64,000 nt of DNA. It comes from Bacteroidota bacterium. Lineage in GTDB: Bacteria; Bacteroidota; Bacteroidia; Chitinophagales; Saprospiraceae. The notes under the pieces were generated by a model, which made no database searches, was not told where the DNA came from, and saw nothing but the letters and a program-made list of their open reading frames with translations. The first letter of the stretch is position 1; each line of letters begins with the position of its first letter. Made by a program: the position numbers and the translations under genes. The stretch lies in the NCBI GenBank assembly GCA_039025055.1, contig JBCCPC010000003.1, positions 87,784 through 151,783 on the forward strand. The letters run 5' to 3'. Positions 308-59,156 of the stretch are shown here, one piece after another.

Positions 308-1804
308 ATGTCCACCACAAAATACATTCTCGCGCTCGACCAGGGCACCACCAGTTCACGTGCTATTCTTTTTGACTTCCGCGGGTCGATAGCTGGCGTG
401 GCACAGAAAGAATTCACACAAATATTTCCGCAAGCGGGCTGGGTAGAGCACAATCCGAATGAAATCTGGGGGACGCAACTAGCCGTGATGCAGCAGGTTG
501 TCAAAGAAGCCAAGATCAGCCACGAAGACATAGCTGCCATCGGCATCACCAATCAACGAGAGACCACCGTGCTGTGGGATAGAAAGACCGGCGAGCCCGT
601 TCACAACGCCATCGTCTGGCAAGACCGAAGAACGGCTGCCTACTGCGAAGAGCTAAAAAAACGTGGGCTGGAAGATTATGTGAAGCAAACGACTGGACTG
701 GTCATAGACGCCTACTTCTGCGGGACCAAGCTCAACTGGCTGCTGGAGCATGTACCCGGTGCAAGAGCGCGTGCCGAAGCGGGCGAGTTGTGCTTCGGCA
801 CCATCGATAGCTGGCTGGTCTACAAGCTGACCGGCGGCGAACACCACATTACCGACGTCACCAACGCCAGCCGAACTTTGCTCTTTGACATTCGGAAGAA
901 GCAGTGGGACGACAAGCTGCTACGAGAAATGAATCTACCTGCGGAAGTCCTTCCCCAAGTCAAGTCGAGTAGTGAGGTTTACGGTCATTGTCAAGCTCAA
1001 TTTTTGGGTGGAGAGGTGCCGATCGCGGGCATCGCTGGCGACCAGCAAGCGGCCCTGTTTGGTCAAGCCTGCTTCGAGAGCGGGATGGCTAAAAACACCT
1101 ACGGTACCGGTTGCTTTATGCTCATGAACACCGGTACTGATGCCGTGACCAGCCAAAATGGCCTGCTGACGACCGTCGCCTGGGAAATAGACGGTAAGCT
1201 GGAATACGCCCTGGAGGGTTCGGTCTTCATAGCCGGTGCGGCGATACAGTGGCTGCGCGACGGGCTGAAAATCATAGACGAAAGCCCCGATAGCGAGCAC
1301 TATGCCGGCAAGGTAGACGATAGTGATGGCGTATACGTGGTGCCTGCTTTCGCTGGTCTAGGCGCGCCCTATTGGGATATGTATGCCCGCGGTGCCATCT
1401 TCGGTCTGACGCGCGGCACCAACAAGTCGCACTTAGTGCGCGCTACCCTCAACAGCATGGCCTATCAGGTGCGCGACGTGCTCGAAGCTATGCAGGAAGA
1501 TGCCGGCATCGAGCTGAGCGCCCTACGCGTAGATGGCGGCGCGAGTGCCAACGATCTGCTACTGCAATTCCAGTCCGATATGCTCGACAAAGCTGTAGAG
1601 CGACCCAAAGTGACGGAGACTACGGCCTTCGGAGCTGCTTGCCTGGCGGGGCTCGCTGTGGGTTATTGGCAAAAAGAAAACGTCTCTCAAGCCTGGCAAC
1701 TCGATAAGCGATTTAAGCCCGAAATGGGAGGCGAAGAGCGAGAGAAGCGGTACAAAGGCTGGAAAAAGGCGGTGGAGCGTACGATGGGCTGGCTGGAGGA
1801 ATAA
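308..1804 (+). CDS. glpK: Glycerol kinase
   Basis: FGGY kinase motifs [41 protein letters not shown]. Confidence 0.97.
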
Positions 1805-1825
1805 CTCGGGCTTGAGGGCCCTCGC

Positions 1826-58500: not shown

Positions 58501-59156
58501 CATGAAAACTGGCAGTGCAGTACCTGATCCTCGAAGTCGATCAGGTCTAGCTCGTAGGGGTCGATGCGTATGAGCCAGACGTGCTGGGCGTCGATGCTGT
58601 GGTACTCTACGGCCCAGACGCGCCTCAGTTTTTTGCCGTCTTCCATCCACTCGTGCCACATGCGTATAGACTCCAGGGCCAGGTTGCTGGGAGCGAAGGT
58701 GACGCTGTGTGCGTCTTGGTCCGTGATTTTTATTCTTTGTACTTCCGCAGGTCGCACACGCTGCCCATCGACCGTCGGGCCAAACATGCTGAGCACATAG
58801 GCCAGTACTTCTCGTGAGGCTACGATCGGCTCTGCTTCTATAGCCTTTGCACGTATGTCGGATACGAATTTATTGCCCACACTCAGCACCTCACCATCGG
58901 GGCTCAGGTTGGCGTTCAGTACCGCCCCGCGTATGGGTAGCCCCTGGTGGCGCTGCTGTAGGTAGATGTGCTCCACCCCCGTATGCGTGCTCGCATAATG
59001 GCTGCTGACGGAGTAGCTCAGGTCGGTATCGGTCAGTCCGAGCCTGCTGAGGTTGTCTTTGAGGTAGCTCTCCAGTGCTTGGGGTATATTCTGGTTTTGA
59101 GCAAAAAGGGTGAAAGCCAGTACGCTGGCAAGCAAGGTCGTGATAGTCTTTAGCAT
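55572..59156 (-). CDS. M36 fungalysin-family metallopeptidase with PA and DUF11-like domains, T9SS cargo
   Basis: FTP propeptide, SPFGWHD, VHEYAHG, GEGWSDFF and CTD IYPNP. Start moved to ATG 59156. Confidence 0.9.
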   Translation of the reverse strand: MLKTITTLLASVLAFTLFAQNQNIPQALESYLKDNLSRLGLTDTDLSYSVSSHYASTHTGVEHIYLQQRHQGLPIRGAVLNANLSPDGEVLSVGNKFVSDIRAKAIEAEPIVASREVLAYVLSMFGPTVDGQRVRPAEVQRIKITDQDAHSVTFAPSNLALESIRMWHEWMEDGKKLRRVWAVEYHSIDAQHVWLIRIDPYELDLIDFEDQVLHCQFSCAENHQHIESEFNSEGTPLLLGGVGGGRTSAGSHHTHQAETSNLLSSTPNSYNVFPYPVESPNHGVTAVVVDPIDELSSPFGWHDTNAVDGAEFTTTRGNNVHAYHDIFNLRRSLGDEPDGGTDLNFDFPYDGSLRPHQQVDAAMTNLFYWNNISHDILYRYGFDEAAGNFQATNYTGVPDSQANDWVRAEALDGAGLNNANFFAPPDGGLGRMQMFIWNSSFPTTHRFSMEVSGVDSLAGTYGYRPANFGPLLLPQDGQQIFELAIAEDTTNISGDGCDSLLNPDELLGKAAIVRRSGECSNFTKALQVQAAGATLVVICNTDGGDDFYNPFTTFADDSLTIPVIGLSQAVCDSLIVGLDAGISLKLPTDIVLPDPGPPGLDSDYDNLVIVHEYAHGLTQRLTGGPFLTDCLNEIEQAGEGWSDFFGLVFTTDSTNTPDEPRGIATWLNEEPTDGTGIRPFPFSRDFGVDPITYENFGQVSIPHGIGSIFGSALWDLYWNMADEYGFDNDLYEGTGGNNLALQLIIDGLKLQPCDPNFLESRDAIILADSILTGGENRCMIWETFARRGLGVNATPGGGADFSAPFTCRPFLQVTKTSPVDEELSGFELQYALDIRNGRMEPILNAVVYDTLPPGTSLVPGSSSCQITETDGVLTIELGDMAPESIVLCSYRLTTEPTLFSELDFEEDTGNFSDWDRDNTIGGENWRFRNSFDFSGNRAFFAPNSDTLGDFTLTMEDAYVLGDVRPGIILDHFYRTDEGSDGGVVEVSTDDGLNWQDVGAENFVENGYNPVPLKSDTDNPIAGRFAFHGRLDTFVRTALDLSEFAGQSVKLRFRFASNSEGGGEGWVIDNIYYYDQLFVAVNEAVAITDDVVDRSSVGVLMFQGPNSVEEPGAQLDMSIYPNPAQHEIFLQTSYQQPISNLNIRLIDLNGRVILTKAIGQLAGRQSINLGNLPAGAYLVDVIADEGVYRERLIIK
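58422..58453. repeat. G/C-rich REP-like sequence in frame inside the M36 gene
   Basis: ccctcccccgacccctcccagaaggagggggg encodes PLLLGGVGGG. Confidence 0.55.

Follow-up and report, generated by a model that had tools for sequence, protein, structure and literature searches.

The 64,000-nucleotide stretch of DNA analysed here (the window) spans positions 87,784 to 151,783 of contig JBCCPC010000003.1 (C3:87784-151783) in a Saprospiraceae genome assembly (GCA_039025055.1; G000, the focal genome, 5.02 Mb in 111 contigs, 49% GC), and it carries 11 exact copies of a 12-mer, ACCTGCGGAAGT, most of them embedded in coding genes. The first (937..948, plus strand) lies in sense in glpK, which codes for an FGGY kinase, where it is read as LPAEV and forms the site TCT·ACCTGCGGAAGT·CCTTCC, and it is followed by an antisense copy in a GH13 cyclomaltodextrinase-like gene (6886..6897, plus; GLPQV), a sense copy in galK with the 3′ flank ACAAAT (16046..16057, minus; YLRKY) and an antisense copy in a 498-aa open reading frame (ORF) that had no Pfam hit (23676..23687, minus; VLPQV). 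The copy at 30585..30596 (plus) presents the full canonical site, CCG·ACCTGCGGAAGT·CTAAAA, and occupies the divergent spacer between the gene of a TonB-dependent receptor and that of a protein sorted by the type IX secretion system (T9SS); the next one (31419..31430, minus; TSAG) is antisense in the T9SS-sorted protein gene. Further copies are found in sense in a 226-aa ORF (38658..38669, minus; PPAEV) and in mqnD, assigned to VitK2_biosynth (41842..41853, minus; RPAEV), and antisense in an M4 peptidase gene with the 3′ flank CTAAAA (47845..47856, plus; RLPQV), while an M36 peptidase gene harbors two, one antisense (58407..58418, plus; TSAG) and one sense (58741..58752, minus; RPAEV). The two M36 copies are 334 bp apart and in opposite orientation, and so are the copies at 30585 and 31419, which are 834 bp apart, as predicted by the spacing rule described below.

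A previous reading of the window (the original prediction) had listed these copies together with four one-mismatch copies, and the coordinates and strands of all 15 were correct, as were the gene and peptide assignments for glpK, GH13, galK (LRK), mqnD, M4 and M36 and the placement of 10 of the 11 exact copies inside ORFs, the one at 30585 being intergenic. Dinucleotide shuffles produced a mean of 0.26 matches and a maximum of 2. Likewise, the flank bias perceived in that reading was recovered, with C at position –2 in 10 of 11 copies and a pyrimidine as the second base after the motif in 11 of 11. Nevertheless, the observation was understated, since the motif is a far larger phenomenon than the window could show. 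The genome-wide count that had been recommended revealed that ACCTGCGGAAGT is the most frequent 12-mer of the focal genome, with 756 copies (one per 6.6 kb) distributed as 378 on each strand, against an expectation of 0.4-3.7 copies under Markov models of order 2-5, which corresponds to an enrichment of at least 200-fold and confirms the excess; the runner-up among unrelated 12-mers reached 58 copies.

Ten positions of the 12-mer are near-invariant, and positions 4 and 8 accept variants, so that the family may be written C-N-ACC[T>c,a]GCG[G>a,c,t]AAGT, with about 1,083 members in the focal genome versus 13 for a scrambled control. The C at –2 is retained in all family variants, and the downstream logo, M-Y-A-A-A followed by an A-rich tract, is the same in coding and intergenic copies. 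A footprint computed over 58 sites common to the focal genome and its sister species presented identities of 0.90 at –2 and of 0.81-0.95 at +13 to +17, relative to a background of about 0.70; conservation was elevated at these flanking positions only, positions –1 and +12 being free. Since –2 and +13 to +17 are conserved across species, the functional unit is predicted to be an asymmetric site of about 20 bp, C·ACCTGCGGAAGT·YAAAW, with ACCTGCGGAAGT as its core. The quasi-palindromic character formerly ascribed to the motif found no functional support, and the conserved site is clearly asymmetric.

The imperfect copies in the window can be sorted by the same anatomy. Two of the four one-mismatch copies are family variants, namely ACCCGCGGAAGT in glpK (375..386, minus), changed at tolerated position 4, and ACCTGCGCAAGT in a 244-aa ORF (11731..11742, plus), changed at tolerated position 8. 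The other two are changed at strict positions: ACCTGCAGAAGT (19753..19764, minus) is probably a decayed or chance copy, and GCCTGCGGAAGT (36572..36583, minus) differs at position 1. Two double variants were missing from the earlier list, the intergenic ACCAGCGTAAGT (15404..15415, plus), which preserves the canonical C at –2 and is flanked by CCAAAA, and ACCCGCGTAAGT (39025-39036).

Genome-wide, 555 copies (73%, on crude ORF calls) are located inside ORFs, in five of the six frames and without preference relative to the gene (263 sense and 292 antisense), and 199 are intergenic, where the density is about 3.5-fold that of coding DNA; no preference exists among convergent, divergent and tandem spacers, whose motif densities are equal. 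In segments with GC below 0.45, which probably represent acquired DNA, copies were 2-7 times fewer. To follow the origin of the intragenic copies, as the original prediction had advised for glpK and other genes, motif-bearing proteins were aligned with those of nine motif-less congeners, and 44 of the 54 site comparisons had no indel within two residues of the site. For example, LPAEV of GlpK corresponds to IPTSI or VPTEL in motif-less congeners, with no indel. Moreover, the residues coded by the motif were 33% identical, versus 55% across the rest of the alignment. Because indels were few and the motif residues poorly conserved, it follows that substitution, and not insertion, wrote the copies over pre-existing codons at tolerant positions. 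Haemophilus and Neisseria uptake sequences occupy proteins likewise, at tolerant positions, and 65%, 49% and 34.5% of uptake sequences were reported within ORFs (PMC2817400).

Several other explanations were discarded. The insertion of a short element is ruled out by the 44 of 54 comparisons that lack an indel, and a miniature inverted-repeat transposable element (MITE) by the fact that single 20-bp sites replace sequence of equal length and that only 33 close pairs exist genome-wide. A promoter, terminator or RNA signal is excluded by the balanced gene orientation, by the equal densities among spacer types and by the T-run placed on the wrong side of the hairpins formed by close pairs. Phage origin is likewise ruled out, the motif being at chance level in 2.9 million viral contigs (IMG/VR).

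The same observations bear on the alternative raised in the original prediction, according to which the copies would be orphaned half-arms of repetitive extragenic palindromic (REP) sequences, or, more generally, remnants of mobile elements such as REPINs dependent on REP-associated tyrosine transposases (RAYTs) or MITE ends. This explanation draws on the Y1 (RAYT-type) transposases present in 46 of the 47 genomes of the single GTDB genus adopted for comparison, and on the 30 head-to-head motif pairs that form long hairpins, some with palindromic inserts; REP sequences and their bacterial interspersed mosaic elements (BIMEs) also have hundreds of copies, species-specific families and inverted arrangements. 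However, REPs are palindromic, extragenic and inserted, and flank their own RAYT, whereas the site described here is asymmetric, mostly intragenic and born by substitution, with positions conserved across species. In addition, each of the three RAYT genes of the focal genome is flanked by its own, different REP family, with arrays of GACCCCTACCGGGGCC, GTCCCCCGGGGAC and CGCCCCGCTGGGGC, respectively; the motif was not present at the RAYT loci of two congeners (G050 and G008), and the viral contigs, as mentioned, hold it at chance level. This origin is thus already contradicted and hardly credible. As to the RAYT loci themselves, the genes at C8:74401-74745 and C24:20321-20665 have their own REPs on both sides (GACCCCTACCGGGGCC, about 8-9 copies, and GTCCCCCGGGGAC, about 11-13 copies). 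Outside the window, at C57:22711-23915, the two copies of a head-to-head motif pair stand on either side of a spacer that contains a RAYT gene and an array of about 17 CGCCCCGCTGGGGC REP units; this RAYT, the one located between two motif copies, thus comes with REPs of its own.

Across the genus, the exact 12-mer was abundant in four species only, all of them uncultured metagenome-assembled genomes (MAGs) named 'Bacteroidota bacterium': G000 (756 copies), G051 (648), G052 (502) and G050 (998); in the thirty other congeners checked and in 16 other families it had 0-4 copies. Although the aligned DNA of the sister species is only 70-74% identical to that of the focal genome, their sites occurred at the same position with 12/12 identity in 25 of 28, 30 of 33 and 6 of 7 cases, when about 2% would be expected by chance. 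A related word, GCACCTGCG, was enriched 10-60-fold and strand-symmetrically in about 30 of the 47 congeners, reaching up to about 1,500 copies, with tails that include GCAGCGCC, GCCCCGCC and TCCGCGCC, and it never exceeded about 90 copies outside the genus (about 148 genomes from 81 genera). Other members of the genus use still different words. In G016, from which the focal motif is absent, the dialect TGCTACTTTG… (CAYTGCTACTTTGnnAGYCAWAA) had 89 copies per 360 kb of contig C1, 56% of them in ORFs, and the dialects of G059 and of Neolewinella marina were CAGGCACCTCACG and TGCACCTGCGTCCGCGCC, respectively; because N. marina carries this dialect, the genus is probably Neolewinella/Lewinella-like. 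A family of hyper-abundant 'self' signals therefore extends over the genus, and the focal motif is the dialect that one clade uses.

Some further features of these dialects were recorded. The genus spans 49-62% GC and the dialect tails track genome GC, being rich in A in the clade at 49% GC and, like GCCCCGCC, GC-rich in species of 56-62% GC. The G016 word holds the pattern of the Bacteroidota –7 promoter box (TAnnTTTG), and the 3′ half GAAGTCTAAAA is common to the focal motif and to some copies of the G016 word. The DUF5689 and barrel genes of G057 and G059 are 100% identical; G057 is listed at 10% contamination, and some of its contigs may derive from a G059-like genome.

The most distinctive property of the motif is the dependence of its spacing on direction. 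Adjacent copies less than 2 kb apart were in opposite orientation in 136 of 144 cases in the focal genome, and the 8 same-orientation neighbours observed at this distance compare with about 105 expected under independence. The share of opposite neighbours decreased with distance, to 72% at 2-4 kb, 60% at 4-8 kb and 50% beyond 8 kb. Within one orientation the spacing was regular (gamma shape 2.6), with a mean of about 11 kb, a density of about one copy per 11-13 kb and a 5% quantile of 3.1 kb, versus 0.57 kb for a random process; between orientations it was random, with a coefficient of variation of 0.98 and with 78 opposite pairs at 0.5-2 kb where independence predicts 78. The orientation rule holds in every dialect tested, since opposite neighbours within 2 kb made up 25 of 27 cases in G002, 13 of 13 in G050, 8 of 8 in both G051 and G052, and 27 of 27 in G016. 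Such a sensitivity to orientation over kilobases suggests that reading takes place from one side only or on a single strand, and the self-avoidance would reflect the redundancy of a second copy in the same direction.

The sole excess of close copies concerned head-to-head pairs within 500 bp (49 versus about 14 expected), which fold into long hairpins located in spacers, and other palindromic elements are frequently inserted between the heads. The claim that copies are single, not paired, was thus accurate for the window and failed genome-wide, where 33 adjacent pairs lie within 200 bp, 30 of them head-to-head. Among the palindromic elements enclosed by head-to-head pairs are GTAAAGACGCAAAATTTTGCGTCTCCAC or GTATAGCGTACAG repeats, and elements that seek hairpins may use those of the motif as landing sites.

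A recombinogenic site could in principle leave a comparable pattern. If a site-specific nuclease or recombinase acted on the motif, deletions would purge direct repeats separated by no more than a few kilobases and inverted copies would survive, which agrees with the near absence of same-orientation copies below 2 kb and with the fading of the effect by about 8 kb in all dialects. However, the existence and in-place retention of about 1,000 conserved copies would be left unexplained, inversions between the many inverted intragenic copies would be harmful too, and the coincidence of observed and expected opposite pairs at 0.5-2 kb resembles redundancy and not hazard, so that this explanation seems very improbable.

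Every long contig held the motif at about 50:50 by strand, there was no link to the sign of GC skew (Fisher p = 0.45), and adjacent copies tend to alternate instead of running in one direction; neither genes nor the direction of replication govern where the site is placed. The Chi/KOPS-type replichore polarity contemplated in the original prediction is contradicted by these data, and a KOPS (FtsK-orienting polar sequence) or another architecture-imparting sequence was rejected, because such sequences have a strong skew that switches at origin and terminus, whereas the motif totals 378 copies on either strand.

Known Chi sites are 5-8 nt long, only few-fold enriched and co-oriented with replication. 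A Chi-like function in a broader sense was also weighed, in which a DNA-degrading helicase-nuclease, acting in break resection or against foreign DNA, would be attenuated in a polar manner by the motif or would take it as a 'password'; with copies in both directions, any two-ended break would be flanked, and the long word would be hard for phages to possess by chance. The likeness to the Chi sites of RecBCD and AddAB comprises a polar, species-specific signal read from one side, the marking of self DNA, a frequency of about one per several kilobases and the possibility of being carried by phages. A one-sided reader predicts both the per-orientation regularity and the independence between orientations, and this combination would be indirect evidence of the polar reading characteristic of Chi. 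Moreover, foreign-looking DNA is depleted in the motif, about one copy per 11-13 kb per orientation is within reach of processive resection, and the focal genome encodes one AddA-like helicase-nuclease (UvrD plus PD-(D/E)XK/Fe-S). The differences are nonetheless considerable, since the footprint is about 20 bp, the enrichment is at least 200-fold, no co-orientation with replication exists and dialects turn over within one genus. RecC was found in 0 of the 47 genomes, and an AddB-like partner, looked for in the focal genome, was not found there; AddB is the Chi-reading subunit of AddAB (PMC3321194). The absence of RecC speaks against RecBCD as the reader. Per-site selection alone also seems costly as a cause of the overwriting of 555 coding positions, and a Chi-like role is therefore regarded as rather unlikely.

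A prophage-like cluster in the focal genome (C43:~1-17000), with genes for a collagen-like tail fibre, a tape measure protein, an HK97 capsid, a portal protein and a terminase, is absent from the sister species and contains two full canonical sites in opposite orientation, 5.7 kb apart. It had been considered as a motif-free control and was discarded as uninformative because of these two sites, which fit either a Chi-like system or one based on uptake signal sequences (USS). Because the HK97 capsid gene occurs in only 8 of the 47 genomes, a role of the motif in packaging by a conserved gene transfer agent of the HK97 type is ruled out.

The nucleoid-protein site also suggested in the original prediction would belong to an architectural explanation, in which the protein bound at the motif would either block a loop-extruding or sliding complex in a directional manner or provide the point where it loads. 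Orientation dependence over kilobases would imply one-dimensional tracking, and supercoil domains are similar in size to the per-orientation spacing of about 11 kb. A known parallel is the highly iterated palindrome HIP1 (GCGATCGC) of cyanobacteria, which is hyper-abundant, conserved within and between ORFs and regularly spaced (PMC5861425), and whose function was long unexplained, although it has been proposed to be connected with the structure of the chromosome and with transformation or horizontal gene transfer (PMC5861425; bioRxiv 10.1101/2024.09.10.611283; PMC13756078). Hyper-abundance, conservation across genomes and non-random regular spacing are common to both. HIP1, however, is an 8-bp palindrome recognised by methyltransferases and distributed phylum-wide, whereas the focal site is a 20-bp asymmetric sequence confined to a single genus, where it is divided into sub-clade dialects and follows an orientation rule impossible for a palindrome. 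No candidate protein was identified, and the literature searches turned up no bacterial precedent for a system of this type; in addition, the rapid turnover of dialects in one genus and the depletion in acquired DNA fit a signal of self/non-self or of exchange better, which renders an architectural role improbable.

The search for com genes proposed in the original prediction was productive, ComEC being found in 44 of the 47 genomes and intact genus-wide. In Riemerella anatipestifer, transformation is pilus-independent and requires ComEC, DprA, a helix-hairpin-helix (HhH) protein, an outer-membrane barrel and a DUF5689 surface protein (PMC8459023). A comparable gene pair exists in the focal genome, where C33:3559-6393 codes for a 944-aa barrel-like protein with no Pfam hit and C33:6460-8541 for a protein with three DUF5689 domains (E = 3.5e-121), which is probably a lipoprotein as judged from its lipobox. 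The pair C33:3559-8541 resembles Riemerella RS04915/RS04920, the 944-aa protein being the putative counterpart of RS04915. The likeness to Riemerella thus consists of ComEC and the barrel-like/DUF5689 gene pair, and it differs in that the consulted passages on Riemerella mention no uptake sequence and in that the cassette is restricted to a minority of the focal genus while the motif system is genus-wide.

Taken together, the motif evolves like an uptake sequence and is placed like a one-direction signal. With a probability of about 0.4, we favour the interpretation that it would be a self-DNA signal for DNA exchange and recombination, read in a strand-specific manner downstream of the outer membrane. 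The site would mark the organism's own DNA during these processes and would accumulate as uptake sequences do, through the preferential take-up or processing, followed by recombination, of motif-bearing fragments from relatives. Because the genus is devoid of the type IV pilus, strand-specific reading of the site would probably take place after the outer-membrane step, at ComEC-linked single-strand entry and recombination. The reader would be a machine able to track along DNA or to handle single strands; a nearby second copy in the same direction would be redundant to it, and both directions would be needed everywhere.

The resemblance to the DNA uptake sequences (DUS) of Neisseria and the USS of Pasteurellaceae, put forward in the original prediction, was sustained for abundance, reading frames, dialects, positional conservation and the A-rich flank, and not for the uptake machinery or the spacing rule. 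As in these systems, there are hundreds to thousands of strand-symmetric copies with a high ratio of perfect to near matches, a large share in ORFs (73% here) in several frames and at poorly conserved residues, intergenic enrichment, positional stability across species and lineage dialects with a common core; inverted close pairs and scarcity in acquired DNA are also common to them, and the A/T-rich flank recalls the USS.

The following observations weigh against an exchange signal of this kind. The PilB/PilT/GspE ATPase (PF00437) was found in 0 of the 47 genomes, with positive results in 13 of 14 controls, and the type IV pilus or pseudopilus, the canonical uptake machinery, is absent from the genus. 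The focal density is 5-8 times below that of the control samples (USS 0.87 and DUS 1.34 per kb), and focal close pairs are not terminators, as the T-run lies upstream of the hairpin. In the controls (668 Pasteurellaceae USS and 360 Neisseria DUS), neighbours more than 100 bp apart were opposite in 50.6% and 57% of cases, respectively, so the same-orientation avoidance at the kilobase scale, strong up to 2-4 kb in the focal motif, is weak or absent in USS and DUS. Finally, barrel plus DUF5689 occurred in exactly 9 of the 47 genomes, namely those of the focal clade and G016, G020, G048, G057 and G059, and most of the 38 genomes without the cassette were strongly or moderately enriched for the polar GCACCTGCG word. 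Since the cassette is confined to these nine genomes and the motif is genus-wide, the cassette is not the common reader. The nine are exactly the genomes without strong GCACCTGCG enrichment. The DUF5689 protein was separately rejected as the specificity reader on account of this distribution and because it is not specially conserved within one dialect.

Given the lack of a type IV pilus and the orientation-dependent spacing, the motif is not simply 'a DUS'. A tentative proposal, still doubtful, is that it represents a new class of signal, neither a pilus-type uptake sequence nor a RecBCD/AddAB Chi, in which a directional 'password' of about 20 bp with genus-internal dialects would be recognised by a reader that tracks DNA or handles single strands. 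The hallmark of this class would be that each orientation tiles the chromosome regularly and independently of the other, a property not described for any known motif. Searches of the literature found neither the 12-mer nor a description of the motif system, and no Bacteroidota uptake sequence or Chi was found.

Very few lineages are known to possess genome-shaping 'self' signals, the examples being the DUS of Neisseriaceae, the USS of Pasteurellaceae, Chi and the cyanobacterial HIP1, and the evolution of these signals is a long-standing puzzle. The motif would add Bacteroidota to the list for the first time, in a genus that lacks type IV pili, and its at least 4-5 dialects among 47 species, some of them cultured, offer a natural experiment. 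The orientation rule provides a new, purely genomic read-out of directional reading that narrows the search for the reader, and other abundant motifs can be examined by the same orientation-spacing test. Should the signal prove to govern uptake or recombination, a handle for the genetic manipulation of Saprospiraceae-type marine bacteria would become available as well.

Other repeats were noticed in the focal genome besides the motif, namely CTCCCTTCGGTC/GACCGAAGGGAG, with 58 copies, and a tandem repeat of the GGATGTGGGATGTGGGA type in the first 100 kb of C1.

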